Shown here: piece by piece, positions 20,184-53,328 of the stretch | How the letters are laid out: each line of letters opens with the position of its first letter | Position numbering within the stretch: the first letter of the stretch is position 1 | Notes under the pieces: generated by a model | What the model was told of the DNA's origin: nothing | Databases searched by the model: none | The model's input: only the letters and a program-made list of their open reading frames with translations | IMG/VR virus record: IMGVR_UViG_3300012007_000011 | Location: 155-64,154 of that record | Source of the DNA: a virus | Taxonomy: Duplodnaviria; Heunggongvirae; Uroviricota; Caudoviricetes | Reading direction: 5' to 3' (one strand) | DNA: 64,000 nucleotides | Translations under genes and position numbers: made by a program

Positions 20184-20984
20184 ATGACAAAGATTCAATT
20201 TAGGAATGAAGATTGTTTTAAAACGATGGATTTATTCATTAGTAAAGGGAAAAAAGTTGATATTATATTGACTTCACCCCCTTATAATACGGCCAGAAAG
20301 GTTAAAACGCAAAAAGCGTTAGATACTCATAATAATCGTTATGATGAATATAATGACAATATGACTAATGAAGAGTATTGTAAATGGAGTGTTAACTTGT
20401 TCAATAAATTTGATGAGGTTCTTAACAAAAATGGTGTGATTCTTTATAATCTTTCATATGGTTCTGAAAATCCAGATGTAATGTGGCTTGCAATTTGCGA
20501 TATTCTTCGTAATACCAATTTTATGATTGCTGATACAATTATATGGAAGAAGAAATCCGCACTACCGAACAATGTAAGTCATAACAAGTTGACACGTATT
20601 ACTGAGTTTGTATTTGTTATTTGTCGAAAGGATGAATTTAAAACTTTCAATGCAAATAAAAAAGTAACAAAGGAAAGTGCAACTGGACAGAAATATTATG
20701 AAAATGTATACAACTTCATTGAAGCACCAAATAATGACGGTTCTTGCAGTATCAACAAAGCCACATATTCAAGTGAATTGTGTGAGAAACTATTAAATAT
20801 ATATGCAAAAACCAATTCTATTGTTTATGACCCATTTATGGGAACTGGCACAACGGCAATAGCTTGTCAGAAATTTAATAACATGAGTAATGATATGGTG
20901 TGCATTGGTAGTGAGATTTCTGAGAAACAAGTTGAGTATTCAAAAGAAAGATTAAATAAATTTTTAGAGGAAAATAAGTTATAG
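20184..20984 (+). CDS. DNA methyltransferase (beta-class, SPPY)
   Basis: ILTSPPYNTARK (motif IV) and VYDPFMGTGTTA (motif I). Confidence 0.7.
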   Translation: MTKIQFRNEDCFKTMDLFISKGKKVDIILTSPPYNTARKVKTQKALDTHNNRYDEYNDNMTNEEYCKWSVNLFNKFDEVLNKNGVILYNLSYGSENPDVMWLAICDILRNTNFMIADTIIWKKKSALPNNVSHNKLTRITEFVFVICRKDEFKTFNANKKVTKESATGQKYYENVYNFIEAPNNDGSCSINKATYSSELCEKLLNIYAKTNSIVYDPFMGTGTTAIACQKFNNMSNDMVCIGSEISEKQVEYSKERLNKFLEENKL

Positions 20985-24049: not shown

Positions 24050-24361
24050 ATGATGAAAGAAAAACAGATTTCAGAATCAATACTTAAACTTAAGTTATTA
24101 AAAGAAAGGTTTAATGAGAGACAACGTATTCAAGAAAAAAGTAGAAATGATTTAAAAAGGTATGAAAATCTTGATAAACAATATCCAGAACATAAATATG
24201 TAGAAAATTATATAAGATACCTTGAACAAATTGTTTTTGAAAATAAGGTACTTCTTAATGCTTTGCAAAAACAGTGCCTTGATATTAAGAAAAAAATCAA
24301 AAAATTGAATAAGGAACAAAATATTAGAAACAATAAAAAGTTAGAAAAACATGACAAATAA
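24050..24361 (+). CDS. coiled-coil small protein (~103 aa)
   Basis: First ATG downstream of the promoter; the ORF-track start at 24026 is a TTG inside the -7 box. Confidence 0.45.
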   Translation: MMKEKQISESILKLKLLKERFNERQRIQEKSRNDLKRYENLDKQYPEHKYVENYIRYLEQIVFENKVLLNALQKQCLDIKKKIKKLNKEQNIRNNKKLEKHDK

Positions 24362-26126
24362 CATTTTTACAAAGAGTGATTCGTTCAAGAGTGAGTACTG
24401 TTGCAGTATCATCCGTGTGGGTGAAGTAAAACCAATTGAGGGTAAGGACAAAATTGGCTACACTCTTGTCAATGGTGAGACAATTGTGGTACGTAAAGAC
24501 CAAATTAAAGAAGGTGATGTTTTGCTTTATGCAAGCAATGAAACACAACTTGACAAGGATTTCCTTGGAGCAAACAATCTTTTTGAAAGTTCTTCATACC
24601 AACTTAATAGTAATGCAAATGAGATTGAACCTTATATTTTAAAGAATAAGGAACTTAAGGCAGAAGCAGAAAATCTTGAAAAGGTAATAAAGAAACTTTT
24701 TGTTTGTTCTAAGTTCTTGATTGGCTATGATAGTGCTGTTATTGCAGCAGGAGACAATGAGGAAGAGAAGAGTGAGTTGGAAACTCGTCTTAATAATTCA
24801 CGCAAGACAATAAGTAAGTATATAGGTGGTAGTTTTAATGAGGATAGCACACTAATAGACTATGTGACAACAGCACAGAAATATTGTGCTGAGAAGAAAA
24901 CACAACTTGATATTATTAAAAAAGAAATTGATGAAACCACTGCTTATATTCGTGGACATGTAGGATTTTTTAATAAGACTGGACGTGTCCGCTCAATTCG
25001 TCTTGGTGGTGTACAATCAATGGGTTATCTTTTCACTCTTGATGAACTTGCAAAGTATAATCCCAATGTCAAAAATATTTCTCTTAACCAATATGTTGGG
25101 GAGGATTTTGATACAATTGAAGACAAACTGTTTATCAAGGCATATGTTCCCTTTGTGCCTGAACGCAGACAAGTCTCAAAGGTGGAAAAGAGAAATAAGA
25201 AAATTGAACAGTTTGACCGTATGGTGAAAGGTGAGTTTTCTTTCCATTATGATACTGCACCACTTCCAAAGTGTATCGGAAGACTAAAGCCAAGTGATGT
25301 CGTAACAATAACAAGCAAGTTACATGGAACTTCAATTTGTATTGGTAAACTCCACGTTAAGACACCAATTAAACTTCCATTCTATAAGTGGATTTGGAAT
25401 AAGTTTGTTGACTTGACAGGACTTTTCAAGGCACATCGTATTACCGATTATGTTATTGATTACGGTAATGTCACTGCTTCACGTACAGTAATCAAAAACC
25501 AATATATCAATGAAAATGTCTCTGACGGATACTATGGTGTTGATGTATGGTCTGAGTATGGTAATCTCATTTATCCTTTCCTTTCTGAAGGAATGATTAT
25601 CTATGGTGAAATCATTGGTTATCTCACTGATAGTGATAAGATGATTCAGAAGAATTATGACTATGGCTGTAATAAGGGTAAAAACAAACTCATGATATAT
25701 CGTATCACTACAAATAATGAAGATGGAACGAAGCATGAGTGGAATGTAACAGAAGTTAAGGAATGGACTGAGAAACTTGTCAAAGACCATCCAGAAATTG
25801 CTGATAGAATCCATGTTATTGACTTGTTGTATCATGGCACACTTGCAGACCTTTATCCAAATATTTCTTATATGGACCATTGGCATGAAAATGTCCTTGA
25901 GGCATTGAGAAATGAAAAGGAACGTTTCAATATGGAGAAAAATGACCCAATCTGTAAGAATAAAGTTCCATTTGAGGGGGTCGTTCTAAGAATTGATAAT
26001 GATGAGTTTGCAGAAGCATTCAAACTTAAATGTGCAAAATTCCTTTCTAAAGAAAGAGAGGAAATTGACAAGGGAGAAGTTGATATGGAAATGCTTGATA
26101 ACTACGGAAATAATGAGGGAGTATAA
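24351..26126 (+). CDS. ATP-dependent RNA ligase (Rnl2-type nucleotidyltransferase) with an N-terminal tRNA-binding OB (Myf/Trbp111-like) domain
   Basis: N-terminal IIRVGEVKPIEGKDKIGYTLVNGETIVV matches the tRNA-binding-domain consensus (vG.v....HP.ADKL.v..vd.G....iv). Ligase motifs: I SKLHGTS (KxHGxN), III YGEIIG, IV FEGVVLR, V KLKCAKF. Confidence 0.6.
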   Translation: MTNNIFTKSDSFKSEYCCSIIRVGEVKPIEGKDKIGYTLVNGETIVVRKDQIKEGDVLLYASNETQLDKDFLGANNLFESSSYQLNSNANEIEPYILKNKELKAEAENLEKVIKKLFVCSKFLIGYDSAVIAAGDNEEEKSELETRLNNSRKTISKYIGGSFNEDSTLIDYVTTAQKYCAEKKTQLDIIKKEIDETTAYIRGHVGFFNKTGRVRSIRLGGVQSMGYLFTLDELAKYNPNVKNISLNQYVGEDFDTIEDKLFIKAYVPFVPERRQVSKVEKRNKKIEQFDRMVKGEFSFHYDTAPLPKCIGRLKPSDVVTITSKLHGTSICIGKLHVKTPIKLPFYKWIWNKFVDLTGLFKAHRITDYVIDYGNVTASRTVIKNQYINENVSDGYYGVDVWSEYGNLIYPFLSEGMIIYGEIIGYLTDSDKMIQKNYDYGCNKGKNKLMIYRITTNNEDGTKHEWNVTEVKEWTEKLVKDHPEIADRIHVIDLLYHGTLADLYPNISYMDHWHENVLEALRNEKERFNMEKNDPICKNKVPFEGVVLRIDNDEFAEAFKLKCAKFLSKEREEIDKGEVDMEMLDNYGNNEGV

Positions 26127-26469: not shown

Positions 26470-26964
26470 ATGGAAAAAGATTTGACAATAGTTTCTTCTA
26501 AAACCGCAAAAGAATTAAAAGACTTCGGTTTTGATATTATTTGTCCTAACTGTTATGGTGTGGCTGTAATGCATAATGGTGAATATCTTGGGTGTGATGA
26601 AGAATATGAACTTCGTGCCGAAGGACGTGGTGATGAAATCGAATACATCGACTACGGAATGCTATATAATATGTGGTTTAAGAATAATGATAAAGAAGAC
26701 CACGATGTATGTGCGGCACCAGATATTGAAATTGTAAGGAAATGGTTTAGAGATAAATATAGTATTCATATTACCGCAATGCCATATATAACTGTTGAAG
26801 GATGTTTTTGGCTATCTGAAGTTTACACTTATAATGATGTAATGTATAATAAATTGCCACTGACAACAATGGTATGTGAGACATATGAAGAAGCCATTGA
26901 AAAAGGTATTAATAAAACAGTAAATTATCTTAAAGAGAAAGAAAAAGAAGATGAAACATTATGA
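26470..26964 (+). CDS. hypothetical protein (164 aa)
   Basis: ORF after a TTTTGCAACTG promoter at ~26435. Confidence 0.45.
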   Translation: MEKDLTIVSSKTAKELKDFGFDIICPNCYGVAVMHNGEYLGCDEEYELRAEGRGDEIEYIDYGMLYNMWFKNNDKEDHDVCAAPDIEIVRKWFRDKYSIHITAMPYITVEGCFWLSEVYTYNDVMYNKLPLTTMVCETYEEAIEKGINKTVNYLKEKEKEDETL

Positions 26965-27631
26965 TTCAATACCACGCATTCAAGATGATGGAACACTTCT
27001 TGGTTGTGATATTTGGGCATTTAACAAACTTGACGGACAAAATTTTTGTGTTAACTATTCTCCAAAAACAAAGGAGTTTAAAAATTTTGGCAGCAGAACT
27101 GTAATGGTTGATGAGACTTCTGACCAATTTGGTGATACGGTTCGTTATTTTAAAACAAGTAATATTCCAGATACACTTAAAGAAATCATTAAACAAAATA
27201 GTGGTAAAGGAAAAATTTTCAAGGGGATAGATGAAATAACTTTTTATTTTGAGTGGTATGGAGAACATTCCTTTGCAGGTAGGCATGACGAAAATGATAC
27301 GATGCATCTTGCGTTGATTGATGTCTTTTTGAAAAAGAAAGGTTATATTGAACCAAAGGATTTTTATGAAATTTTCGGTCAGAATGACAATATAGAAACA
27401 CCAGACTTGATTTATCATGGAAAATTAACAAAGGAGTTTATCAATGATATTTGGAACAACGAGGTAGGAAATGAAAACGCCCAATATCCAAGTGTGAAAG
27501 AAGGTGTTGTTTGCCGTAATAGCCATTTGTTAAAGGGACAGAGAATGCCAAAGGTCAAATTTAAGACAAAATGGTGGATTGACAAACTCCATTCAATGTA
27601 TAGCGAGGAAGAATGTAAAAAATTAGAATAA
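26951..27631 (+). CDS. minimal ATP-dependent ligase (nucleotidyltransferase domain only, 226 aa)
   Basis: Motifs I NKLDGQN (KxDGxN), III EWYGEH, IV KEGVVCRN, V KVKFKTK. Confidence 0.55.
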   Translation: MKHYDSIPRIQDDGTLLGCDIWAFNKLDGQNFCVNYSPKTKEFKNFGSRTVMVDETSDQFGDTVRYFKTSNIPDTLKEIIKQNSGKGKIFKGIDEITFYFEWYGEHSFAGRHDENDTMHLALIDVFLKKKGYIEPKDFYEIFGQNDNIETPDLIYHGKLTKEFINDIWNNEVGNENAQYPSVKEGVVCRNSHLLKGQRMPKVKFKTKWWIDKLHSMYSEEECKKLE

Positions 27632-28751: not shown

Positions 28752-29168
28752 ATGGAAATAAAAGATTACAAAATTGGAACATCTTTTGAGATAACATGTT
28801 CAAAAGAAAAACATAGAGTATCAGGAAAGGAAGATGGTAAATACTATTATCAAAATTTTGGAATAGTTAAAGAACATGCTTATATGTGGGGTGCTAATCC
28901 GGAGAATGTGATTACAGTAAAAGCCACTATTATTGAAGAAGACGTAATGTGTCAAAAATTAATGGTGGACAAAAACTATGATAACAATTCAATAGATTAT
29001 TTTGGTAGAATATCTTTTGATGAGGGGAAAATGGATATTCATTTAATATACCCAAATATTAAACAATATTTTATTTGTTTCCCTTATGGTACAGATGTTG
29101 GTCTATTTGACAAAGATGGAAATAGGGAAGAAATGAATGTCAGACTTAAAATTGAAGAATTATCATGA
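28752..29168 (+). CDS. hypothetical protein (~138 aa)
   Basis: ORF; start at the first ATG after the upstream stop. Confidence 0.4.
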   Translation: MEIKDYKIGTSFEITCSKEKHRVSGKEDGKYYYQNFGIVKEHAYMWGANPENVITVKATIIEEDVMCQKLMVDKNYDNNSIDYFGRISFDEGKMDIHLIYPNIKQYFICFPYGTDVGLFDKDGNREEMNVRLKIEELS

Positions 29169-29908
29169 GATATTGCGGAAGTAAAAGAAAATTTATGAAG
29201 TATCTTCTTCCTATTTTGACAAAGGATATGGACGAAAATACGCTGTTTGTTGACCTGTTTGGCGGTGGTATGAATGTTGTGTGTGAAATTCCTTGTGAAG
29301 TGAAAATTGCTGTTGATTATAATAAGTATGTTATTGCATTATGGAAAGAACTGCAAGAAAACGGCATGAAGAACATACCAACAGAGGTATCAGAGGAAAT
29401 GTATAATGATGTAAAATCAGATTACATAAATCACAGCAACAAATATGAAGACTATATTATTGGCTATGTCGGTACATGTTGCAGTTTTGGTGGCTCATGG
29501 TTCAATGGCTATGCAAGATTCAATCCAAACAAAAATGAAGACCACATCAAGGAGGCATATAATGGATTGAAAAAACAAGTTGAAAACTTTATTGGTCTTA
29601 AAAAGACTGTATTCCTGCATTGTACATATAATATGGTATTGCTGCACAAAAACGATATTGTGTATTGTGACCCACCATACGCTTCAACAAAGAAATATGA
29701 ATCTGATTTTGACAATAATCTGTTTTGGGAGTGGGCAAGGGAAGCAAGTAAAAAAGTGAAGAAACTTTATGTGTCGGAATATGACGCACCAGACGATTTC
29801 GAATGTATTTGGCAAATGGAAAAAAAGGATTCTCTTGGTACACAGAAAGGAAAGAAACAGAACACAAAAGTAGAGAAATTATTTGTATATAAAGGAAAAA
29901 ATAATTAA
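29165..29908 (+). CDS. Dam-like N6-adenine DNA methyltransferase (alpha-class)
   Basis: Motif I VDLFGGGMNV comes before motif IV VYCDPPYAS, the order typical of T4-Dam/Dam-family enzymes. Confidence 0.65.
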   Translation: MRYCGSKRKFMKYLLPILTKDMDENTLFVDLFGGGMNVVCEIPCEVKIAVDYNKYVIALWKELQENGMKNIPTEVSEEMYNDVKSDYINHSNKYEDYIIGYVGTCCSFGGSWFNGYARFNPNKNEDHIKEAYNGLKKQVENFIGLKKTVFLHCTYNMVLLHKNDIVYCDPPYASTKKYESDFDNNLFWEWAREASKKVKKLYVSEYDAPDDFECIWQMEKKDSLGTQKGKKQNTKVEKLFVYKGKNN

Positions 29909-32986: not shown

Positions 32987-33021
32987 AAGATGGTGGACTA
33001 TTAGTGTATTCCACCATCTTT
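32987..33021. terminator. bidirectional terminator hairpin overlapping the 3' end of the - strand gene
   Basis: AAAGATGGTGGA..loop..TCCACCATCTTT. Confidence 0.4.
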
Positions 33022-33996
33022 CTTGTATTTAATGTCATATAACATTTCGTTTAAATCTGCATAATATGTGTGTTTATTTTTAAAAGTAGTTGGTACATTT
33101 TGGTCAGTGAAATAAAAAACATCAATACCATGTTCTTTGCATTGTTTAAATTTTAATTCATCTCGTTCTATTAATTCGTTAAATGTAAATATTTTTGTTT
33201 CTGTTGAAATGTTTGAAGAAAATGACGTTGCTTGAAAATGTTGTATTCCTTGACATTCAATTGCACTGTTATATTCCGGTAAATAAAAATCTAATTTCAT
33301 ATTAGTTTTATTTTTTAACCATTTAAACGTCTTTTCTTCAATAAAATATATTTTATTCTCTGACAAAAAATTAGATAAATATTTTTCAAGTTTTGATTTT
33401 TGACACTTTGGACAACCATTTCCTTGTAAATGTTTGTCTGGTGTTTGCCAAAACTCACCATGTTCTGGACATATGATACATACCTTTGTTTTGTTATTAA
33501 TATAATTTACGTTAGAATAATCATACAGGTTGTTATGTATATATTTTGCTTTCTCTATAAAAGTATTATTGTTTGAGGCTAATTTTTGTTTGTATTTTAT
33601 TTTTCCACATTCAGGACATCCGCAACCTCTGATATGTGAATTTGCTTCTTGCCAAAATTCACCATGTTCTGGACATATGATACAAACCTTTTTAGTGTTA
33701 TCAATATAGATTGTCTTAGAATAATCGTATTTGTTATTATGCACCCTTTGTGCTTCTTTAATAAAATCTTCATTTGTTTTGGTTAAACGCTTTTTATGGT
33801 TTTCGTATTTACATTTTCTACATCCTTTACCACTTAAATGGCAATTTGGCGTTTGCCAAAACTCTCCGTGTTCGGGACATATGATGCACACCTTTGTTTT
33901 ATTGTTAACATATTCCACCTTTGAATAATCATACTTGTCACCATGTACTTTTCTTGCATGTTCTATAAATTCCTCTGTTGTTACTCTTTGTTGCAT
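33001..33996 (-). CDS. homing-endonuclease-like protein: 3 zinc-ribbon modules plus a Vsr/PD-(D/E)XK-like C-terminus (paralogue of 3858..5000)
   Basis: The same repeat signature (YDYSKVEY.NN.TKVCIICPEHGEFWQ..H..G.GC..C) three times, and a C-terminal LDFYLPEYNSAIECQGIQHF. Start taken at the ATG at 33996 (the track start is a GTG at 34002). Confidence 0.6.
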   Translation of the reverse strand: MQQRVTTEEFIEHARKVHGDKYDYSKVEYVNNKTKVCIICPEHGEFWQTPNCHLSGKGCRKCKYENHKKRLTKTNEDFIKEAQRVHNNKYDYSKTIYIDNTKKVCIICPEHGEFWQEANSHIRGCGCPECGKIKYKQKLASNNNTFIEKAKYIHNNLYDYSNVNYINNKTKVCIICPEHGEFWQTPDKHLQGNGCPKCQKSKLEKYLSNFLSENKIYFIEEKTFKWLKNKTNMKLDFYLPEYNSAIECQGIQHFQATSFSSNISTETKIFTFNELIERDELKFKQCKEHGIDVFYFTDQNVPTTFKNKHTYYADLNEMLYDIKYKKDGGIH

Positions 33997-34003
33997 AATC
34001 ACA

Positions 34004-34308: not shown

Positions 34309-35136
34309 ATGACAGAAAAAATAGTATTTGATTATAAGCGTGTTACAAAGGGTGATGTAAATGACCATGTTTTTGACAATTATGGAAATGAGTATATCCA
34401 CTTTAAAACAGATAATGATGGCATAGTGTGGTTTAAAAAATTGGAGAATAATGATTATTATGCTTTCAATAAAAAGGGCGAAATGCTAAACCGTAAAGAA
34501 GTATTTCTACACATTGAACATAAAACAGATATTAAGAAATATAAGTATTTGGTTCGTAATTTATCATGTAAAGAAAATAAGATTTTTTATTTAAAAATAA
34601 GTGATAATTGTTATTTTGAATTTAGAACTGATAATTTATATGTTGATTATAAGTTTGTAAAGGGTCATGAATATTATTTTGAAAATTGCCATGAACCTGA
34701 CTATGACGAAAAAAAAGTTATGTTTAACCGTCTATATGATTTGGGCTATGGTTATAATTGGGCAAAACAAGAAATATTCCAAAACATTGATTTAATACAA
34801 AGAGACAAATTTTATATATACAGTAATACGGTATTTAAAGCGTCTCATGACATTGTTTACGATTATAGAAAGGACAACATGTCAATTCCTTATGAATTTC
34901 TTGTTGATTTGGATTCTAAAAAACAAAGACGAATGTATGAGAATGCAACTTTGGGACTGCCGAGTTACATATGTGTAAGAGAAGCAACCGAACAGGAAAT
35001 AGGACAAGCAAAAGAAATTTATGAAAGTATGAAAGTAACTTTCCAGAATGTTGAACGTAAACTAATAAATATTAAAATTGATTTAGATGAAACATTACAA
35101 ATGTTGTACAAACTAAAAAACGAAAATGGACAATAA
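34309..35136 (+). CDS. hypothetical protein (275 aa)
   Basis: ORF after the promoter. Confidence 0.5.
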   Translation: MTEKIVFDYKRVTKGDVNDHVFDNYGNEYIHFKTDNDGIVWFKKLENNDYYAFNKKGEMLNRKEVFLHIEHKTDIKKYKYLVRNLSCKENKIFYLKISDNCYFEFRTDNLYVDYKFVKGHEYYFENCHEPDYDEKKVMFNRLYDLGYGYNWAKQEIFQNIDLIQRDKFYIYSNTVFKASHDIVYDYRKDNMSIPYEFLVDLDSKKQRRMYENATLGLPSYICVREATEQEIGQAKEIYESMKVTFQNVERKLINIKIDLDETLQMLYKLKNENGQ

Positions 35137-35368
35137 GGGTAGGAAATTCTTTTTTGGAAAATATAAAGGAAAATATATTAATGATATCATTATCAACGAT
35201 ACACAATATATCACATGGTCAATGAAAAATATTGATTGGTTTTGGTATAATCATGATGAAGTAGAACTCTACAAGCAACAGATTAAACTTGGAAAAAAGC
35301 CAAAAAACCAATATGAATTAATAATGGAAAACATTAAGCAAGAAGAAAATGGAAATACAAGAGGTTAA
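35126..35368 (+). CDS. small protein with an FGKYKGKYI motif (DUF3820-like)
   Basis: FFFGKYKGKYINDII..W motif; paralogous motif in 42734..43054. Confidence 0.4.
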   Translation: MDNKGRKFFFGKYKGKYINDIIINDTQYITWSMKNIDWFWYNHDEVELYKQQIKLGKKPKNQYELIMENIKQEENGNTRG

Positions 35369-35729
35369 AGACAAATTGAAAAAAGAAAAAGAAGAAAGAT
35401 ATAATACTGTTCTCAACCATTGGAAAGAACGAAAACCTTTCAGAGACGAGGATGATATTCCGCCAATACCAATTGTATTGCCAAAAGACTATGAGGAAAT
35501 AATTGTTCCAAACATTATAAGATGCGGAGGCATTCCAAAAGATAAACTGATAGTTGGCAAAACATATATTGGAGATTGTAGGAACGCAACAGAAGCTGTT
35601 TGGGATGGTGAGAAATTTACATATATGCGGACAAAGTTCGGAAGTACTTATCCAGAAACAATAAATCATTTTCAAGATGATGATGGATATGACCTATTTG
35701 TTCCATTAAAAATAAAAGATGAAAAATAA
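35349..35729 (+). CDS. hypothetical protein (126 aa)
   Basis: ORF. Confidence 0.4.
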   Translation: MEIQEVKDKLKKEKEERYNTVLNHWKERKPFRDEDDIPPIPIVLPKDYEEIIVPNIIRCGGIPKDKLIVGKTYIGDCRNATEAVWDGEKFTYMRTKFGSTYPETINHFQDDDGYDLFVPLKIKDEK

Positions 35730-35734
35730 CATAT

Positions 35735-36157
35735 ATGGCTAGCATTATTAACTTAAACAATATTTGTAAAATTGTTTTAAGGAAAAAAGAAAAAACTGAC
35801 GATTTTAAATGGGTAACAAGGCAAACTTTTTCACAGTGGTTTATGAACTTGTTTCGCAAAGATAAAGTTACAACAAGTTATGTCAAATTTCGTCTAAAAG
35901 GTGATTGCTACATAGTCACTGACATTGAAAATGATTTATTAGGAGAAGAATGGTTTAACAAAAAATATGAATATAATAGTGCAACCAAAATATTTTTTGA
36001 AAAACCACATGTTGCATTATGGTATTCTGATTTTAATCATTCATATGAAATACGATACTTCGAAAGTAATAAAGAAGCAACTGATTATTTTAACAAACTA
36101 AATGATTATGCGCAAAAACAGAATGTACCATTTATAAACATGGATGCCGGAAAATAA
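35735..36157 (+). CDS. hypothetical protein (140 aa)
   Basis: ORF. Confidence 0.45.
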   Translation: MASIINLNNICKIVLRKKEKTDDFKWVTRQTFSQWFMNLFRKDKVTTSYVKFRLKGDCYIVTDIENDLLGEEWFNKKYEYNSATKIFFEKPHVALWYSDFNHSYEIRYFESNKEATDYFNKLNDYAQKQNVPFINMDAGK

Positions 36158-36179
36158 ATTTGATATAATATAATTTTTT

Positions 36180-36470
36180 ATGTTTAAAGATGTTGAAGAA
36201 TTAAAGGATTTATTAAGAGAAATGGGATATGGGGACACTGTTGTGTTTGAAAATCCCTCATATATTAAAGCAATAATTGGAATAAGTGATGTTGGTGGTC
36301 TATGTTATTCATATGAAAAAATGATTCAATGCCTAATGGAAGAAGACGGAATGAATTATGAGGAAGCAATGGAATTTATTGATTATAATACTGTGAGAGC
36401 ATTACCTTATACTTCATCATATGGTAATAGACCGATTATAGTATATAATGATTTTTCCCAAGAGGAATAA
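36180..36470 (+). CDS. hypothetical protein (96 aa)
   Basis: ORF. Confidence 0.4.
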   Translation: MFKDVEELKDLLREMGYGDTVVFENPSYIKAIIGISDVGGLCYSYEKMIQCLMEEDGMNYEEAMEFIDYNTVRALPYTSSYGNRPIIVYNDFSQEE

Positions 36471-36488
36471 AACTTTAAAAATAATATA

Positions 36489-37361
36489 ATGTTAAACTTA
36501 AATAGAATAAAAGAAAGCAATGAGAATAAACATATTCCAAAGGAAATTGAGGAAACACGTAATCTGATTACTGAATCCTTTAAAGATTTGGAATTTGTTG
36601 AAGACGTTCATAAATACTTTTTGCCAAAAGGAAAAAAGAAAATTGAACTACCAAGTGTAAGTTCGATTATTAAACGTTGGGAACAAGAAGTTGATTGGGA
36701 TGAAAAGGCTGAACTTAAAGCATTAAGTTTGGGTATTCCAACAGAAGAATTGAAAAGGCAATGGCATGAAAACAATATAATCAGTACATCTTGTGGTTCA
36801 AAAACGCACTTTTTCGGTGAAAACGCAATGAATATGTTCATTGGTAGGGAGGATTTGGCGAAACAGAATATGCCTTTCCAATATACCGAAGATGGTTATC
36901 TTATACCATATTGTCCGAAAGAATGGGCGATTACGCAATATTATGAGGATATAATGAACAATGAAAACGTCTATCCTGTAATGCCGGAGGCAAAAATATA
37001 CACTAATTATAACAAGACGTTTAAAATGAAACAACCATATGCAGGTACTTTTGATATACTACTTGCATATAGATATAAAGGGGAAATAGTATACAGCATT
37101 CATGATTTCAAAACAAATAAGGATTTATATAAAGCATTTAGCAGAAGTAATGGCGTAATGATGCTTCCACCATTTGATGAAATGGGATTTTATGAAGAAC
37201 CATATTACCATTATGTAATTCAATTAAATTGTTATCAGTTAGGGTTAATGCAATTGGGTTTGAAAATTGTTGACAGAAATCTTATTTGGCTTAAAGAAGA
37301 TGGTACTTATGAAAAAATTAAAGTACCAGATATTACACAAGTTTTATTACCATTATTATAA
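36489..37361 (+). CDS. PD-(D/E)XK nuclease of the RecB/Cas4/YqaJ/lambda-exonuclease type
   Basis: Ordered motifs GTFDILLAY (motif II D), IHDFKTNK (D.K) and YHYVIQLNCYQ (QxxxY). Confidence 0.5.
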   Translation: MLNLNRIKESNENKHIPKEIEETRNLITESFKDLEFVEDVHKYFLPKGKKKIELPSVSSIIKRWEQEVDWDEKAELKALSLGIPTEELKRQWHENNIISTSCGSKTHFFGENAMNMFIGREDLAKQNMPFQYTEDGYLIPYCPKEWAITQYYEDIMNNENVYPVMPEAKIYTNYNKTFKMKQPYAGTFDILLAYRYKGEIVYSIHDFKTNKDLYKAFSRSNGVMMLPPFDEMGFYEEPYYHYVIQLNCYQLGLMQLGLKIVDRNLIWLKEDGTYEKIKVPDITQVLLPLL

Positions 37362-37373
37362 AAGAAGAAAATT

Positions 37374-38183
37374 ATGGAAACATTAAAGGAAAAATGTCAA
37401 GAGTTAAGAGCAAAATATGATGTCAGTATGCCAAAGAAAACATACGCAATGGCAATGATTGATGGTAAGAACTTTTCACGTCTTATTAAAAACAAATATG
37501 AAAAACCATTTGATGATAAATTCATTAATATGATGAATGAAGTGGCAATTTATGTTTGCAAGAACGTACAAGGTTGCAAATTCGCATATACACAATCAGA
37601 TGAAATTACATTTGTTCTAACTGATTTTGAAAACGAAGAAACAAGTGCATATTTTGATTATCGTTTATGCAAAATGTTATCAATTATACCGTCACTTGCA
37701 ACGGCAAAGTTTAACCAATTGGTAACATTGAATCTGCTTGATACACCTTGTTCAACAGAAGACATGAAACAAATCATCAAACATATGTCGCTTGCACAAT
37801 TTGACTGCAAAGTGTGGAATACAGATAACTTTAATGATGTGTTTGCATATTTCCTTTGGAGGCAGATAGATTGTGTGAGAAATTCAAAACAACAAGCAGC
37901 ACAAACATATCTTTCGCATAAAGAACTTATGGGAAAACATACAGATGAACAAATTAGACTGTTGTTCGAAAAGAAAGGAATTGATTGGAACGAATATTCT
38001 GATGATAAAAAATACGGACGTTTCATATATAAGGAACAAATCGAAAAGCCATTACCAAATCATGAAGAGAATACATGTCTGAGAAATGTGTGGCTTGCGC
38101 ACGATGCGTTTGAATTATACGAAAGTGGTGGAAAACAAAGACTTTTGGAACTTGGTGTCATTCCGATTAAGATTATTGAATAA
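37374..38183 (+). CDS. Thg1-like protein (tRNA-His guanylyltransferase family 3'-5' nucleotidyltransferase)
   Basis: AMAMIDGKNFSRL matches Thg1 VVRIDGKKFHEFS. YEKPFDDKF matches FAKPNDENA. KFAYTQSDEITFVL matches ILAFGESDEYSFIL. The catalytic D (in IDG) and SDE acidic residues are conserved. Confidence 0.6.
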   Translation: METLKEKCQELRAKYDVSMPKKTYAMAMIDGKNFSRLIKNKYEKPFDDKFINMMNEVAIYVCKNVQGCKFAYTQSDEITFVLTDFENEETSAYFDYRLCKMLSIIPSLATAKFNQLVTLNLLDTPCSTEDMKQIIKHMSLAQFDCKVWNTDNFNDVFAYFLWRQIDCVRNSKQQAAQTYLSHKELMGKHTDEQIRLLFEKKGIDWNEYSDDKKYGRFIYKEQIEKPLPNHEENTCLRNVWLAHDAFELYESGGKQRLLELGVIPIKIIE

Positions 38184-38330
38184 TGCACAACTATTTATAT
38201 GTAGTGAATAATTTCAAAAAGGCAAAAATTATGAAATGGTTATTATTCAAATACACGGAGAATGCATTTTTCTATAATCAATTCGTTACAGAGTGTTTGT
38301 TTTTAATACTTGGTTTATATGGATGAAAAA

Positions 38331-38363
38331 TGGGAGTAATTTATAACTACTCCCATATTTTAT
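38331..38363. terminator. bidirectional terminator
   Basis: TGGGAGTA..loop..TACTCCCA hairpin with an A-run on one side and a T-run on the other, between convergent genes. Confidence 0.55.
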
Positions 38364-38383
38364 ACTTTATGCAGTTGTGTTTT

Positions 38384-40126
38384 TTATCCTTCAGAAGTGC
38401 TTGCATTTTCAAGAGCGGTAACTCTTTGTGTAAGTTCGTCTATTTTATTTAATAATGAATTAATTGATGAAAGATTTGTTTCTACTCTCGTATTCAAGTC
38501 ATTTAATGAAGAAGAAATAACAAGTTCATCGTCTTCCATATCATTTCTTAATGTTTGAATATTTGCTTCTACATTTGCGATTTGAGTATTTTTCAAATCT
38601 TCAATTCTATCATTCAAGTCATTTAATGAAGAAGATACAACAAGTTCCAAATCATCAATACCCTCATCGAAATCAGTCATTCTTTCATTAATGGTAGTGA
38701 ATTGATTTGTGGTGTTGGTACTCAATTCTTCAATTCTTGTGTTGAGGTCATTAAGTGAAGCAGAAACTGTATGTTCGATTTCGTCAAACTGATTGTCAAC
38801 TTCTGATTTGGTATACGTATCTACCTTATCTGCTTTTGTTTCAAGTGTTGAATTAATTGCTTCATCTGCGGCAGTTCTTGCAGCAATTTCTTCATTCACA
38901 ACTGTTTGTGTTGCAAATGTACTATCAGCAGTTGTCTTGTCGTAATAATTTGCAGGATTGAAGATGTCTGTAAGTGCAATTGAGATTGGTTCTTGACCCG
39001 CATCAGTATTGAAAGTAATGACAAGATTACCTTCTGAAATCTCAACATTTGATACCATACCATCCTTAATGAAGTTAGTTGCATCAATTGTCGCAATTAC
39101 ATCAAGCCCATTTCTAAAAATGATTTCTTTGCTATTTGAATCATATCTTACATTATCAAAGAAATTAGAAGTTAAATCATTTACTTCTTGTTTGGTGTAT
39201 GTTTCGTCATTATGTTTTATGATACGAGTGTTAAGGTCATTGAGTGCGGCAGAGATAACAAGTTCGTTATCGTCAATTCTCTGATTTACTTCATCAAATT
39301 TAGCATTTGTTTCTTCTGCTTGTGTTTCACTATTGTTTGACAATTCATCAATTCTGCTGTTCAAGTCATTTAATGAAGAAGATACAACAAGTTCCAAATC
39401 ATCGATACCTTTATTAAATTCTTCTGCCTCATCATCAATTCTTTGGTTTATGGCATCTATTTTAGAATTAATATCTTCAAATGCAGCGTCTGAATCTTCA
39501 TCTAATTCTCTTATTCTTGTATTCAAGTCATTTAATGAAGAAGAAATAACAAGTTCAAGTTTTTCAACATTTTCGTCAAAAGTATCAAACCTGTTATCGA
39601 CACTTTCGCTGAGATTGTCAATTTTATTATTAAGTTCTTCATATCTTGCATTTCCGCCACCGTCAATATCATTAATTCTATCATTTAAATCATTAAGTGC
39701 GGCAGAGATAACAAGTTCGTTATCGTCAATATTCTTAGCGTTTTCCTCACTAATATCATTGAGTTTGTCAATTTTTTCTTCAAGTTTGGAAATACTTTCA
39801 ATTCTATCATTCTTTTCTTGTCCTAAAGCACTGGAAATTATTTCTTGGGCTTGGAAAAATTCATTTTCATTAACAAAACCAACAATTTCATCTTCTGAAT
39901 TTTTAATTGAGAGTGTTTCATGCCCTTTTAGATAGTTGACAGCAATTTCACCTTCGATAAGATTATCTTTGGTTGGAAGTTTTGGAAATTTGACTTTAAT
40001 AGGAGAACTACCTTCCGCATCACTATTATCTACTGTTGGTGTCAAACCATAAAACTCTTCAGGATTAATATTTTCTTTTGGGAGTTTACTTTTAATGTGA
40101 GATACGTGTTCAAAATTTTTTGCCAT
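38384..40126 (-). CDS. tail-fibre-like repeat protein (580 aa)
   Basis: At least 9 degenerate ~40-aa repeats with the core (D/N).ELV(I/V)S(S/A)(S/A)LNDLN.RI..L (coiled-coil/beta-helical fibre-like); low-complexity Asn/Asp/Glu-rich. Confidence 0.5.
   Translation of the reverse strand: MAKNFEHVSHIKSKLPKENINPEEFYGLTPTVDNSDAEGSSPIKVKFPKLPTKDNLIEGEIAVNYLKGHETLSIKNSEDEIVGFVNENEFFQAQEIISSALGQEKNDRIESISKLEEKIDKLNDISEENAKNIDDNELVISAALNDLNDRINDIDGGGNARYEELNNKIDNLSESVDNRFDTFDENVEKLELVISSSLNDLNTRIRELDEDSDAAFEDINSKIDAINQRIDDEAEEFNKGIDDLELVVSSSLNDLNSRIDELSNNSETQAEETNAKFDEVNQRIDDNELVISAALNDLNTRIIKHNDETYTKQEVNDLTSNFFDNVRYDSNSKEIIFRNGLDVIATIDATNFIKDGMVSNVEISEGNLVITFNTDAGQEPISIALTDIFNPANYYDKTTADSTFATQTVVNEEIAARTAADEAINSTLETKADKVDTYTKSEVDNQFDEIEHTVSASLNDLNTRIEELSTNTTNQFTTINERMTDFDEGIDDLELVVSSSLNDLNDRIEDLKNTQIANVEANIQTLRNDMEDDELVISSSLNDLNTRVETNLSSINSLLNKIDELTQRVTALENASTSEG
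38479..39760 (-). repeat. intragenic near-identical DNA repeats (35-50 bp) in the fibre gene
   Basis: tattcaagtcatttaatgaagaag(a/at)a(t/c)aacaagttc recurs at ~38484, 38610, 39360 and 39520; ttaaggtcattgagtgcggcagagataacaagttcgttatcgtcaat recurs at ~39228 and ~39686. Confidence 0.8.
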
Positions 40127-42052: not shown

Positions 42053-42730
42053 ATGGAAAAGGAAATTAAAAAACCGTCAGAAATATTCGGTGTTAAAGTG
42101 TGGTTTACGTCAGATAGCCACATACAACATAGGAATATTTTGAAACATTGTCCCAAACGTGCTGAGATTGGTGGTTTTGATATAGATGATGTTGAAGCAC
42201 ATGACAAATGGCTGATTGATATTTGGAACAAAACAATCGGTAAAAGGGATATTGTATATATTCTTGGTGATTTTTCTTTTGCCTCTCCTGAAATTATAAA
42301 GAAACAAATTCTTCCAAAACTTAATGGCCAGAAATATCTTATATTGGGAAACCATGACAAATCCTCTGAGCATCTTCAAGGCTATTTTACACAGATAACA
42401 CAAATGAAAGAAGTGGTTTTCAAAAAGAAAAACTTTCCGTTTATTGAAGAGGATAGTTTTAGGGTATTTATGTGCCATTATCCGATGGTAACTTGGCCCG
42501 GAAAACATCATGGTGTTGTAAATGCGCACGGGCACTGTCACTCACATTTAGATGACTTTAACGAACAAAGTAGTGACTTACGTGTGGATGTTGGCATAGA
42601 TGGTAAACTTGCTGATTTTAAACCGATTTCACTTGAAAAGTTATATTATCACTTTAAGAATAAAACAGGTGGTAAGACGTTTGAGGAATATGTAACATTA
42701 CAGAAAGAATTAGGTACAACGCAATTTTAA
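42053..42730 (+). CDS. calcineurin-like metallophosphoesterase
   Basis: SDSH, LGDFSF, LGNHD and HGHCH motifs in order. Confidence 0.55.
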   Translation: MEKEIKKPSEIFGVKVWFTSDSHIQHRNILKHCPKRAEIGGFDIDDVEAHDKWLIDIWNKTIGKRDIVYILGDFSFASPEIIKKQILPKLNGQKYLILGNHDKSSEHLQGYFTQITQMKEVVFKKKNFPFIEEDSFRVFMCHYPMVTWPGKHHGVVNAHGHCHSHLDDFNEQSSDLRVDVGIDGKLADFKPISLEKLYYHFKNKTGGKTFEEYVTLQKELGTTQF

Positions 42731-46804: not shown

Positions 46805-47359
46805 ATGAAAGGTAGCAGTAACACGAAAAAATTTAAGAAATTTCAGATAAGATGGGCAGAGAGGTTGGGTTATGAAAATAACCCATATCTTATTAGATGG
46901 ACTTTCATCTTTTTTGGATATTCAATGAGAATACACCATTGGATTAAATCTGATGACAATAGATTTTTTCATGACCATTCTGCTGACCTTCTCAGCATTG
47001 TACTAAAGGGAAGATATTGGAATGTAAAACCAATTGTCAATGACAAGAATCCAAATGATATGGTAAATGTAATCCAATATGAAAAGGATTTGGGTGAGGT
47101 TTTGGGAAGGAACGAAAAATGGTGTTATGTTGAAGGAATTTTCAATTCTTGGCGCAATTTCTTTCATATGAAAAATTCAATTTGGTTTTCAAAGGCAGAA
47201 GATAGACATTATCTCAGCATTCCAAAAGGTGGTGCTTGGACTTTAATGTTTGAAGGAAAACCAAGGCATAAATGGGGATTTTATGTGAACGGTCACAAAT
47301 GGAGACCATTGCGTTATTTTCATAAATATGGTATAAGACAAGATGCAGAATATCAATAA
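46805..47359 (+). CDS. hypothetical protein (184 aa), upstream partner of the radical-SAM gene
   Basis: ORF overlapping the radical-SAM gene by 17 nt. Confidence 0.45.
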   Translation: MKGSSNTKKFKKFQIRWAERLGYENNPYLIRWTFIFFGYSMRIHHWIKSDDNRFFHDHSADLLSIVLKGRYWNVKPIVNDKNPNDMVNVIQYEKDLGEVLGRNEKWCYVEGIFNSWRNFFHMKNSIWFSKAEDRHYLSIPKGGAWTLMFEGKPRHKWGFYVNGHKWRPLRYFHKYGIRQDAEYQ

Positions 47360-48497
47360 GTTACTATTTGTACAGTTTGCCAATAGTATGTTTTTAAGAC
47401 ATGGCGAATGTGATAGATATTGGGATGTATTTTATCGGAAATGGGAGAACATCGGCTATTATATGGGAAAATATGTATTTGAGATACCTAAGTGGGTGGC
47501 TGAAATTGCATATTTTCTTCCACAGGACAATAAGGAAATGTTCTATTGTAAATATAATACAGAGGAAGCAATTTCGAAGATAAAGAATGGTAACTATGAT
47601 TATGTGCTGATGTCATTGATGAATGCCAACCAGTATATGATTTATGAGGTTATCAAGAATTGTCCTAAACAGAAATTCCTTGTTGGCGGTTATAATGAGA
47701 AGTTTATGAGGGAGATGGAAAAAGAACTTCCAAACGTTCAAATTTGTGATACAACACAAGAGACCGCTATGCAATTGGGTGTACCTTATAAGTTTGGAAC
47801 TGATTATAGTCTTTTTAGGGGAGACCATGTTATTCCAAGACTGACACTATCTTACGGCTGTCTTAACAATTGTAAATTCTGCATAGTTCCACATGGAAAG
47901 GTAACACCAATACCGGATGGGGTTATAATTCAACAAATGAAATCTTTTACAGACTTGGATTATAGACTTGTATATATAGATGATAAAACATTTGGACAAT
48001 CCCCAAATTACAGAATATTAAAAGAACTTTCAAAATATTCGGATAGAAAGGATTTCAATGGTTTTATTGTACAAACCACGACAGGATTAGTTGCGAAGAA
48101 AGCAAAAGAGTTTAGGGAAATAAATGTAAAGGTCGCAGAAATAGGGCTTGAAACATATAATGACAGTATATTGAGAAAATACAGGAAACCAAGTAGTGAA
48201 AAGTTTATTCGTGAATCTGTGGATGCAGCAAATGAAAATGACTTGATGTTAATTGCAAACATTATCGTTGGTTTGCCGGGTGAAACGGAAGAAACTTACA
48301 CAAGAACATATGATTTTATCATGCCTTTGCTTGAAAATGGTAAATTAATAGGTATTAATCCTGCAATATATACTGATTATGATAATGATGAGAATCTTGG
48401 AGAAATTGACTTTTTAAAAGACGAACAATATGAACTTAATAAAATATGGTGGAATAAGTTTAATCAAACTGCTGCTAATATTTTAAACAAAAATTAA
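47343..48497 (+). CDS. radical-SAM protein with an N-terminal Rossmann-like (B12-binding-like) domain
   Basis: GCLNNCKFC is a CX3CX2C motif at ~aa 175; the N-terminal alternating hydrophobic/Gly pattern (KFLVGGYNE) resembles the cobalamin-binding domain of class-B radical-SAM enzymes. Confidence 0.55.
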   Translation: MQNINKLLFVQFANSMFLRHGECDRYWDVFYRKWENIGYYMGKYVFEIPKWVAEIAYFLPQDNKEMFYCKYNTEEAISKIKNGNYDYVLMSLMNANQYMIYEVIKNCPKQKFLVGGYNEKFMREMEKELPNVQICDTTQETAMQLGVPYKFGTDYSLFRGDHVIPRLTLSYGCLNNCKFCIVPHGKVTPIPDGVIIQQMKSFTDLDYRLVYIDDKTFGQSPNYRILKELSKYSDRKDFNGFIVQTTTGLVAKKAKEFREINVKVAEIGLETYNDSILRKYRKPSSEKFIRESVDAANENDLMLIANIIVGLPGETEETYTRTYDFIMPLLENGKLIGINPAIYTDYDNDENLGEIDFLKDEQYELNKIWWNKFNQTAANILNKN

Positions 48498-51665: not shown

Positions 51666-51982
51666 TGGAAGATAAAATTTATCCTTTACAGAAATCTCAG
51701 GACAGAGATTTAAAGAAAAAATTCGATAATCTTCACGTTGAGATTGTTAACAAAGTTATTGATTTCTGTAAGGAAAACAATATACAGATTGATGAGTTCA
51801 ACATATATGCCGATGGTGTCAGAGAGAGTATTCCTTTTGGTAAATGGACTTCTGTCACCGATAGCAGTTTTAGAATGGATGAATCATTAAGCAATGAGAA
51901 CGGCAAAGATGTGTATAAAATGTCTGATAAAGAATATAAATTAGCAAAAATTAATCACAAACCATTTTTATTAAGTGTGTAA
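51665..51982 (+). CDS. hypothetical protein (105 aa)
   Basis: ORF. Confidence 0.4.
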   Translation: MEDKIYPLQKSQDRDLKKKFDNLHVEIVNKVIDFCKENNIQIDEFNIYADGVRESIPFGKWTSVTDSSFRMDESLSNENGKDVYKMSDKEYKLAKINHKPFLLSV

Positions 51983-52595
51983 AATTATGTGGAATACATT
52001 TAAAACAAGCATTATGGCCGGTATTTGTATCGGTCTTGGTGGACTTATCTTTATGAAAGTCGGTGGTGTCATTGGTGCTGTGATGTTTGCATTTGGTTTA
52101 TTGTGTGTGTTACAGTTTTCAATGCCACTTTATACCGGAACAGCAGGTTTTATAAACCTCAAGAAATACAAAGATTGGTTCTATATGATTTTTGTGCTTT
52201 TCGGTAACATTATCGGCTGTTTCTTGCTCTCGCTCATATTGCCGAATGAAGTCAATGCAGATAGTATAATTCAATCAAGGATTGATACCGGATTTCTGCA
52301 AGCAACATTGAATGGTATCGGTTGTGGAATCATAATGACACTAATTGTACAAGGTGGAAGAGATAAATTAGAATGGTTCAAAGGAAGCGTAATGGGCGGT
52401 AGGGAAAAAAACCTATTACTTACATTGTTTGGAATACCGTTGTTTATCCTGTGTGGTTTCTATCACAGTATTGCTGATGCATTCTATATGTTCAATGCTA
52501 ATTACAACTTATTGTTAGAATATCTTCCAACATATAGTTTTATTGTTCTTGGTAACTTTATTGGATGTAATATACCACGTTTTTTACTGAAATAA
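51975..52595 (+). CDS. formate/nitrite-transporter (FNT)-family-like membrane channel, compact (206 aa)
   Basis: IMAGICIGLGG matches the FNT N-terminal AGAYIGLG motif; LYTGTAG matches LFTGN; ILCGFYHSIADAFYM matches the FNT signature CGFEHSIANMF; multiple TM segments. Confidence 0.45.
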   Translation: MCKIMWNTFKTSIMAGICIGLGGLIFMKVGGVIGAVMFAFGLLCVLQFSMPLYTGTAGFINLKKYKDWFYMIFVLFGNIIGCFLLSLILPNEVNADSIIQSRIDTGFLQATLNGIGCGIIMTLIVQGGRDKLEWFKGSVMGGREKNLLLTLFGIPLFILCGFYHSIADAFYMFNANYNLLLEYLPTYSFIVLGNFIGCNIPRFLLK

Positions 52596-52688
52596 GTCCT
52601 TTTTTGAAAAATGTGCTTATCCCAACGTATATTTGCTTACGTTGGGATATTTATATTTTACACAATAACAAAACTAAACAATGAACAT

Positions 52689-53276
52689 ATGATTTTAGGG
52701 TCACATAATTCGTGGTCTTATTTAAAACCACAAAAATGGTGGATGAGGTTATTATCATTTACTGCTAAATGCCAGTGCAAAACAATAGAGGAACAATATG
52801 AAAAATATGGGGTAAGGTGTTTTGACTTACGTTTAAGATACATTAATGGCGAAGCATATGTTGTTCATAATGATTTTGTATATGCCAAATTTTGGGGCGA
52901 AATAAGTCAGACATTACAATGGCTTAATGATAAAAGAGACGTTGCAATACGTGTAATACATGATGTAAGAACAAAGAACAAATATAAACCATTAAGTGTC
53001 AAGTTATTTAAGGATGATTGCAAACGTCTGGAAGAAGAATATCCAAACATCTTATTTTGGAATGGTAAGAATCTTTATAATCTTGAATATGATTATAATT
53101 TTCAATATTTTCCCAAATGTATTGAAAAATATTCTTCTGCATGCCCACCAAGAATACTTGACGATTGGCTACCATTTTTATATGCAACAATTAAAAACAA
53201 ATGGATTTATAGAAAACATAAATTGGACAATACATATGCATCAATACTTTTAATTGATTTTGTTAACATAAAATAA
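52689..53276 (+). CDS. PI-PLC X-domain-like phosphodiesterase
   Basis: ILGSHNSWSY...YGVRCFDLRLRY matches the PI-PLC X-box (GTHNSY...GVRYLDLRV). Start at the first ATG after the hydrophobic leader ORF. Confidence 0.4.
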   Translation: MILGSHNSWSYLKPQKWWMRLLSFTAKCQCKTIEEQYEKYGVRCFDLRLRYINGEAYVVHNDFVYAKFWGEISQTLQWLNDKRDVAIRVIHDVRTKNKYKPLSVKLFKDDCKRLEEEYPNILFWNGKNLYNLEYDYNFQYFPKCIEKYSSACPPRILDDWLPFLYATIKNKWIYRKHKLDNTYASILLIDFVNIK

Positions 53277-53277
53277 T

Positions 53278-53321
53278 GGGATAACGTTTTTTGTTATCCC
53301 ATTATTATAGTTTTTTTTTTT
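53278..53321. terminator. bidirectional terminator
   Basis: GGGATAAC-GTTTTTT-GTTATCCC hairpin then T11 (53311..53321), between the + and - strand gene blocks. Confidence 0.65.
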
Positions 53322-53328
53322 AATTTTC

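Follow-up and report, generated by a model that had tools for sequence, protein, structure and literature searches.

The Thg1-like gene and its locus

The window considered here is a stretch of 64,000 nucleotides, positions 155 to 64,154 of the IMG/VR virus record IMGVR_UViG_3300012007_000011 (Duplodnaviria; Heunggongvirae; Uroviricota; Caudoviricetes), and our subject is a gene in it encoding a Thg1-like protein (TLP), together with the nuclease gene directly upstream. Thg1-family enzymes are, to our knowledge, the only polymerases that work in the 3'-5' direction, and what is said of the family's role in bacteria and phages draws for the most part on in vitro studies and on genomic context. 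The window has a GC content of ~31% and is densely coding, with the + strand predominating up to ~53 kb. Both open reading frames (ORFs) that a preliminary description of the sequence had singled out are present on the + strand, co-directional and separated by a 12-nt gap, and they are the last two of seven closely spaced genes in the same direction, the first of which starts at position 34309:

34309..36470, + strand: five tightly packed upstream genes of unassigned function, with gaps of -20 to +22 nt in the ORF list
35126..35368, + strand: one of these five, an 80-aa ExoX-C-terminal-like protein, a homologue of which matches ExoX-like_C (PF20600), with an NCBIfam exodeoxyribonuclease X C-terminal match
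36489..37361, + strand: RecB-type PD-(D/E)XK nuclease, 290 aa (PHROG 298, invariant motifs, AlphaFold2 model and Foldseek)
37374..38183, + strand: TLP, 269 aa (PF04446, PHROG 4717, PDB entries 4kgk/4kgm by sequence and fold, residue mapping)

The placing of ORF 37374..38183 in the Thg1/TLP family, proposed in the preliminary description, was borne out by profile, by sequence and by fold. The protein matched the Pfam Thg1 profile (PF04446) with an E-value of 2.5e-25 and 89.4 bits, where the gathering cut-off is 29.2, over profile positions 9-128 of 130, and nearly its whole length was covered by PHROG 4717, ‘tRNA-His guanylyltransferase’ (E 2.8e-56). The Pfam Thg1C domain taken alone fell under its cut-off (18.8 vs 26.3 bits) and NCBIfam had no model matching the protein. 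Among solved structures the top sequence match was the Bacillus thuringiensis TLP (BtTLP; 4kgk), with an E-value of 4.6e-28, or 1.2e-44 with the family profile, followed by the Candida (6.4e-10), yeast and human (1.6e-05) Thg1 proteins and the Methanosarcina TLP. The structure predicted by AlphaFold2 from 20 homologues (pLDDT 89.9) was matched by Foldseek to BtTLP 4kgm with an E-value of 5e-20 and TM scores of 0.76/0.88, and to 7cv1 (TM 0.77/0.82) and 5axk (TM 0.70/0.78); all 32 significant matches were Thg1/TLP structures, the next, non-family match having an E-value of 0.015. The motifs that the preliminary description had picked out were found as MIDGKNF (containing D30), YEKPFDD (K44) and YTQSDEITFVL (S75, D76 and E77). 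Judged by sequence and modelled fold, ORF 37374..38183 is a Thg1/TLP-family 3'-5' nucleotidyltransferase with its catalytic acidic residues D30, D76 and E77 intact. The protein contains no HINNLYN motif: its WRQIDCVRNSKQQ aligned to WRQVDCHINNLYN of the Candida enzyme and WRQQDASKNSISM of BtTLP, and WRQIDC is followed by VRNSKQQ in the phage protein, comparable to ASKNSISM in BtTLP, where eukaryotic enzymes have HINNLYN. Because the phage protein, like BtTLP, does not have HINNLYN at this place, it is a TLP of the bacterial/archaeal type.

An identical TLP protein is present in human gut metagenome assemblies, and relatives at 50-90% identity are encoded by contigs 200-390 kb long and by viral contigs of IMG/VR, whilst a megablast search of positions 36000..39000 against GenBank phages gave no match, so there is no close sequenced relative in that set. 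From the occurrence in gut metagenomes, the 200-390 kb relatives, kinship with the Prevotella Lak megaphages and the phage gene content, we concluded that the window is part of a gut jumbo phage. L-numbers (L001, L005, L220 and so on) are used below as labels of relative loci.

Active-site residues and the R12/M28 subfamily

Thg1-family enzymes possess three active-site carboxylates (hTHG1 D29, D76 and E77; BtTLP D30, D75 and E76), two binding metals; the residues of the activation step are K44 and S76 in ScThg1 and K43 and S74 in BtTLP, and those of the nucleotidyl-transfer step, which are functionally important and not family-defining, are R27, K96 and R133 in ScThg1 and R28 and R131 in BtTLP (PMC3701042). 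In BtTLP the triphosphate of the incoming nucleotide is held by two arginines, R28 and R131, with which E12 makes salt bridges; R28 is the counterpart of R27 in the yeast and human enzymes (PMC3701042). The carboxylates D30, D76 and E77 of the window TLP were aligned with BtTLP D30, D75 and E76 by phmmer, by the profile and by MAFFT, and D30, G31, S75, D76 and E77 were invariant across all 91 phage TLPs compared. The activation-step residues K44 and S75 are both present in the window TLP, the Lys-44 position being K or R in 80 of the 91 proteins and L, Q or V in the remainder. The nucleotide-site residues are K44, R97, K100 and K146; two basic residues of the transfer step, K100 and K146, are in place, and the position of R27/R28 is occupied by M28.

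At the positions of the BtTLP E12-R28-R131 network the window TLP reads R12-M28-K146. Across the 91 phage TLPs, positions 12 and 28 held E with R in 38 proteins, while in 47 an R at position 12 is paired with M, A, C or F at position 28; of the other six, five are intermediates having Q or K with H and one has Q with M, and neither E-M nor R-R occurred among the 91; over these and 80 genome-derived sequences the two positions co-vary perfectly. The switch from E-R to R-M is accompanied by N96R, R131K and I156K (residues R97, K146 and K172 of the window protein). Carriers of the R12/M28 variant include the window, L005, L009, L091-L096, more than 40 IMG/VR loci and the Prevotella Lak megaphages. 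In cellular data (one genome per species of bacteria and archaea) the canonical E-R was found in 73 of the best 80 loci, and the R-M type was confined to six contigs of gut or rumen metagenome-assembled genomes, one of them of 360 kb, which resemble mis-binned phage. On this comparison of sequences, R12/M28 TLPs are a phage-specific subfamily of gut/rumen jumbo phages in which the incoming-nucleotide site appears rebuilt, the variant being absent from the cellular genomes sampled, and the invariant R12 is possibly a relocated arginine taking the role of R28. No description of the variant was met in our literature searches, none of which aimed at it.

RNA-repair genes, tRNA arrays and the adjacent nuclease

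Several genes elsewhere in the window point to RNA repair, and the window also encodes a single-strand DNA binding protein (SSB):

4966..6375, + strand: HD phosphohydrolase with a P-loop (AAA_33) kinase (Pfam HD and AAA_33; weak NCBIfam matches to bacterial Pnkp and to the CCA-enzyme HD domain), a Pnkp-like RNA end-healing candidate
6881..7783: 3'-5' exoribonuclease
8801..9658: metallophosphoesterase
24351..26126, + strand: RNA ligase, 591 aa (Pfam PF09414, PHA02142 OB domain, PHROG 968 RNA ligase with E 5.2e-39)
26951..27631, + strand: short RNA-ligase-family protein, 226 aa (PF09414, 31 bits against a cut-off of 27)
42053..42730, + strand: calcineurin-like metallophosphoesterase (PF00149), 3.9 kb downstream of the TLP gene, possibly a 2',3'-phosphate end-healing enzyme
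988..1464, + strand: SSB homologue (phmmer match; PHROG 44, single-strand DNA binding protein)

Kinase, phosphoesterase and RNA ligase genes are all found in the window, dispersed over ~38 kb and with functions read from their domains only. The position of the phosphoesterase gene 42053..42730 is kept in L001, and its homologues lie at most 0.4 kb from the TLP gene in L038 and L039.

Dereplication of 90 TLP loci, with 75% identity of the TLP as threshold, left 59 clusters. In 21 of the 59 an RNA-repair gene, or more than one, could be detected within 10 kb of the TLP gene, and within 5 kb in 16 of these; the neighbours were searched for with single-sequence or small profiles, so these counts are lower bounds. 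Iterating the neighbour queries as HMMs for two rounds yielded hardly any further matches. In L005, whose TLP is 55% identical to that of the window, an HD-kinase homologous to 4966..6375, a CCA-adding enzyme, a CPD-like protein, RlaP, an RNA ligase and TLP are encoded in a single cassette, all in the same direction. In Lak-C1 the TLP gene is followed at a distance of 2.5 kb by an RNA ligase gene, and Tpt1 is also found among the TLP neighbours of relatives. In six clusters (L019, L067, L081, L082, L086 and L088) the TLP gene sits inside or at the edge of a large tRNA array of up to 35 tRNAs (TLP genes at 9914..10723 in L081, 9914..10723 in L086 and 9935..10786 in L088). A tRNA-His gene follows TLP by 15 nt in L088, lies just upstream of it in L082 and L086, and is present in the array adjoining L019. 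The R12/M28 clade was seen in both kinds of setting, the RNA-repair cassette (L005) and the tRNA array (L019).

Several of the TLP-carrying phage contigs also encode suppressor-type tRNAs, with anticodon CTA in L050 (17261..17333) and L074 (6205..6277) and TCA in L081 (4109..4184 and 5282..5354); such tRNAs read TAG and TGA, respectively, which hints at stop-codon recoding in those phages. The ORFs of the window read through normally with code 11. An IS605 OrfB/TnpB (Cas12f-like) gene lies near TLP in L006 (4955..6124).

The nuclease ORF 36489..37361 matched PHROG 298 ‘exonuclease’ (E 2.7e-19), whilst no Pfam family (PDDEXK_1, Cas_Cas4, YqaJ and others) was found at E<=0.1, no NCBIfam model matched, and a PDB sequence search returned only noise (E >= 0.06). 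In an alignment with 25 homologues, down to 46% identity, H107, E111, E167, D189, D206, K208, Q245 and Y249 were invariant, and these include the residues of the motifs FDILL (D189), HDFKTN (D206 and K208) and QLNCY (Q245 and Y249). The AlphaFold2 model (pLDDT 93.9) was matched by Foldseek with probability 1.0 to MGME1 (E 1e-4), to 3l0a, a putative Eubacterium exonuclease, and to AddA and AdnA; other fold matches were ACE1/Cas4, Dna2, RecB and RecE, the TM scores being ~0.3-0.52, and every structural match was a DNA-end nuclease. Because these TM scores are moderate and no curated Pfam or NCBIfam profile matched, the protein is assigned at superfamily level; from its structural relatives we infer a specificity for DNA, and it is probably a DNA-end exonuclease. 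The preliminary description had called it a RecB/Cas4-type nuclease with a QxxxY motif; the PD-(D/E)XK core and QxxxY stand, but Cas4 proper was rejected, since there is no four-Cys Fe-S cluster, none of the cysteines C102, C142 and C248 being conserved in the 25-homologue alignment. Many homologues (L008 9487..11208; P0181-P0226, of 400-440 aa) carry an insertion of ~130-285 aa just after the DxK motif (query positions 208/209), possibly an intein or else an additional domain.

The nuclease gene adjoins the TLP gene in the closest relatives L001, L002 and L220, and in L006 the nuclease-bearing block is inverted yet still beside TLP. A block in the order TLP, SSB, nuclease was found in L007 (7998..10357), L014 and L016, where the flanks are otherwise unconserved, and the nuclease adjoins SSB in L007, L012, L014 and L016; recurrences of this block are also listed for L008 (with L016), L012 and L015. 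SSB thus lies between TLP and nuclease in some relatives, and 36 kb from TLP in the window. The nuclease was within 6 kb of TLP in 10 of the 59 TLP clusters, whereas TLP was within 10 kb in only five of 49 nuclease-centred loci (SSB in 10 of the 49), the spacing on contigs bearing both genes ranged from 0 to more than 130 kb, and no such nuclease was found near TLP in L003, L005, Lak or Bacillus phages. An obligate nuclease-TLP pairing was rejected on these grounds. The linkage is real but loose, and descent from a common ancestral neighbourhood of nucleic-acid-metabolism genes explains it best.

The order of the genes in 34309..38183 is identical in L001 and L220, and the five upstream genes, the nuclease and TLP probably form one transcription unit. 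This structure is read from gene spacing, because a scan for sigma-70-like promoters returned 39 sites against 41.9 in shuffled sequences, no excess, and a single hairpin resembling a terminator was seen close by, which is that of the convergent gene. That gene, 38384..40126 on the - strand, encodes an acidic coiled-coil protein of 580 aa in which a motif like ‘ELVISSSLNDLNTRI’ is repeated ~10 times; no other large gene of its region lies on the minus strand, and it is shorter in L001 (361 aa). Within the run, the slot 35735..36157 holds a 140-aa ORF of unassigned function, and its counterpart in L006, where the flanking gene families are in common, is an unrelated Tpt1/KptA RNA 2'-phosphotransferase (11392..11988). 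Just upstream of the TLP operon the + strand run of genes is broken by 33001..34002 (-), one of two paralogous homing-endonuclease-like genes (the other being 3858..5000, +); both match PHROG 559 HNH endonuclease and carry repeated treble-clef zinc-finger modules (DUF4379/DUF723).

Among the other genes of the window, a complete MetK-like SAM synthetase gene (11895..13079) and one for a SAM-lyase-family protein (13457..14119) lie a few hundred bases apart, and there are at least four DNA methyltransferase genes (10196..11017, 20184..20984, 29165..29908 and 54828..55610), two genes for radical-SAM proteins (16544..18055 and 47343..48497), a transposase-like gene (18475..19497; PHROG 10081) and a formate/nitrite-transporter-like gene (51975..52595). 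Near 53 kb the direction of the genes is reversed, and so is the GC skew (~52000..56000; cumulative skew peak ~5.5); the minus-strand genes past the flip include a Met-tRNA formyltransferase-like gene (56645..57676) and a ThyX-like fragment (55942..56652).

Function and comparison with known systems

In the manner of characterized TLPs, the window TLP would most likely activate the 5'-phosphate of a 5'-shortened tRNA with ATP or GTP and would then add the missing nucleotides in the 3'-5' direction, templated by the 3' strand of the acceptor stem and including G-1 opposite C73 of tRNA-His. Together with the RNA ligases, the HD-kinase and the phosphoesterases, it would make up a phage RNA-repair set keeping host and phage tRNAs usable during infection, whilst the RecB/MGME1-like exonuclease most likely serves to process DNA ends during replication or recombination, as a rule in company with SSB. 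Co-transcription of the two genes is probable and would reflect their membership of an ancestral nucleic-acid-metabolism gene block, not a two-enzyme machine. The repair cassettes, the tRNA arrays and the repair set of the window together support a tRNA-directed function, and it is from this context, which bears out the tRNA-repair interpretation of the preliminary description, that we infer both the tRNA substrate and the repair role. Such a function also agrees with the biochemistry of BtTLP and archaeal TLPs, which mend 5'-truncated tRNAs (PMC3701042, PMC4820378), and with the listing of Thg1 as a sporadic RNA-repair enzyme of jumbo phages by Iyer et al. 2021 (PMC7824862). We hold it to be fairly probable that TLP is a tRNA 5'-end repair enzyme and that the neighbouring nuclease is a separate DNA-end exonuclease acting independently of it.

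A number of points weigh against this interpretation. Common ancestry of the phages inflates apparent gene linkage, and the tRNA scan of the window came back empty. In eight of the 59 clusters SSB is no more than 2.5 kb from TLP, with TLP directly upstream of SSB in several, and a DnaB-like helicase gene adjoins TLP in Lak-C1; these neighbours fit a DNA-replication setting as well as an RNA-repair one. In the active site, M28 stands where the yeast, human and Bacillus enzymes have the transfer-step arginine R27/R28 and K44 is not conserved across the clade, so that the kinetics or substrate preference of the phage enzyme may, judged from these residues, differ from those of BtTLP. Furthermore, the searchable literature gave no measured activity or experimental study of any phage TLP.

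The tRNA-His genes 15-500 nt from TLP in L082, L086 and L088, and the one in the array by L019, raise the alternative that TLP is a dedicated tRNA-His maturation enzyme, adding G-1 after a cut at +1, and not a general repair enzyme. Three of these four tRNA-His have C73, which is able to template G-1, and L082 has T at -1, so that its G-1 is not encoded. However, G at -1 is encoded in three of the four genes, the bacterial arrangement, and bacterial RNase P normally leaves an encoded G-1 of tRNA-His in place; the proposal that G-1 is missing from phage tRNA-His genes was largely rejected, three of the four having both G at -1 and C73. G-1 addition is accordingly not obligatory, although a lost G-1 could be restored opposite C73. 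As tRNA-His is absent from the surroundings of most TLP loci, the window lacks tRNA genes altogether, and the protein, lacking HINNLYN, resembles the repair-type BtTLP, we regard a dedicated tRNA-His role as unlikely. A second possibility is that nuclease and TLP form an excision-and-resynthesis pair acting on tRNA or other nucleic acid, in which the nuclease would trim damaged or mismatched 5' nucleotides, leaving a 5'-phosphate, and TLP would rebuild the end, resembling mitochondrial tRNA 5'-editing, for which we know of no identified nuclease. The 12-nt spacing and shared direction of the genes in the window, L001 and L220 accord with such a pair, as does the persistence of the nuclease within 6 kb in 10 of the 59 clusters despite many rearrangements, including the inverted block of L006, and the PD-(D/E)XK superfamily does include RNA 5'-end enzymes, for example Rai1/DXO. 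Nevertheless, with TLP within 10 kb in only five of 49 nuclease-centred loci, a spacing of up to more than 130 kb, no nuclease near the TLPs of Lak and Bacillus phages and structural relatives of the nuclease that are all DNA-acting, the suggestion in the preliminary description that the pair could act together on nucleic-acid ends found no support, adjacency being confined to close relatives and SSB being the more regular neighbour of the nuclease. Neither is there an editing substrate class: 119 of 129 phage tRNAs of TLP loci have perfect 7-bp acceptor stems, the exceptions lying mostly at positions 5-7 or in odd tRNAs, so that 5'-editing of acceptor-stem mismatches in the TLP-linked tRNAs was rejected and mitochondrial-style editing is left with no obvious substrate. 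We therefore consider the pair very unlikely.

It is also conceivable that TLP acts on DNA replication or recombination intermediates, or on primers, with SSB, nuclease and helicase, for instance in 3'-5' fill-in at recessed 5' ends. The TLP-SSB-nuclease block of L007, L014 and L016, with its otherwise unconserved flanks, the SSB and helicase neighbours described above, and the remodelling of the nucleotide-transfer site in exactly the R12/M28 clade would suit such a role; on the other hand we know of no Thg1-family member that acts on DNA ends in vivo, the same clade occurs in an RNA-repair cassette (L005) and a tRNA array (L019), and jumbo-phage neighbourhoods mix genes of DNA and RNA metabolism, all of which makes action on DNA highly improbable. 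A variant of these ideas, in which the rebuilt site confers a different nucleotide or substrate specificity and TLP would work with SSB and the RecB-like exonuclease in 5'-end excision and resynthesis on tRNA or replication intermediates, seems to us quite unlikely; if true, it would be a reaction class undescribed for phages. General templated repair of shortened tRNA 5' ends remains the best-supported function of the window TLP.

TLP homologues were found in 155 GenBank phage records and on 486 IMG/VR contigs, many annotated as tRNA-His guanylyltransferase. Thg1 genes of phages have been annotated before, are grouped in a PHROG family and are discussed in a survey of 2021, so the window TLP adds one example to a gene class annotated in more than 100 phage genomes and the discovery is modest. 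The locus is a well-supported phage TLP inside a region rich in RNA-repair genes and, with the repeated cassettes and tRNA arrays seen around phage TLPs, it strengthens the idea that large phages protect their tRNA pool at the 5' end besides the anticodon loop and the CCA end; in practical terms it yields a short list of enzymes that can be tested. Further work might be worthwhile only on the R12/M28 subfamily and on the recurrent TLP-SSB-nuclease block. The subfamily could reveal how a reverse polymerase accommodates a redesigned incoming-nucleotide site.

The closest characterized enzyme, as best match in both sequence and structure, is BtTLP (4KGK/4KGM), a bacterial tRNA 5'-end repair enzyme. 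The two proteins share the carboxylates (Bt D30/D75/E76, phage D30/D76/E77), S74/S75 and K43/K44, the TLP-type region replacing HINNLYN and the C-terminal R..W, but are only ~27% identical and differ at E12-R28-R131 (R12-M28-K146 in the phage), N96 (R97) and I156 (K172); unlike BtTLP, the phage-encoded protein has a ~14-residue helical insertion (residues ~122-137) and a longer C-terminus. Eukaryotic Thg1 proteins (human 3OTB, Candida 3WBZ and yeast 5XOX) share the fold and the two-metal site, and the numbering of human THG1 (D29/S75/D76/E77) nearly coincides with that of the phage TLP, whereas identity is ~19-22% and HINNLYN stands in place of VRNSKQQ; the eukaryotic enzyme adds G-1 untemplated opposite A73. 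Among GenBank phages the closest relatives are unannotated copies in the Prevotella Lak megaphages (47% identity, R12/M28), whilst the Bacillus phage TLPs (BSP38 gp122, Bcp1 and FADO; PHROG 4717) are ~35-38% identical with the canonical E12/R28, and unlike the window neither group has a RecB-like nuclease beside TLP. That nuclease shares the PD-(D/E)XK core, D...DxK and QxxxY with MGME1, the nuclease domains of AddA, AdnA and RecB and the Cas4 family, at 9-17% identity, but it is a stand-alone protein of 290 aa with an N-terminal helical extension and without the four-Cys Fe-S cluster of Cas4, AddB and Dna2. As a system, the repair genes of the window follow the same logic of restoring broken tRNAs as T4 Pnkp with Rnl1, bacterial Pnkp/Hen1 and the RlaP-ligase systems, although they are dispersed over ~38 kb, unlike one operon, and whereas those systems mend breaks in the anticodon loop, a TLP rebuilds missing 5' nucleotides.

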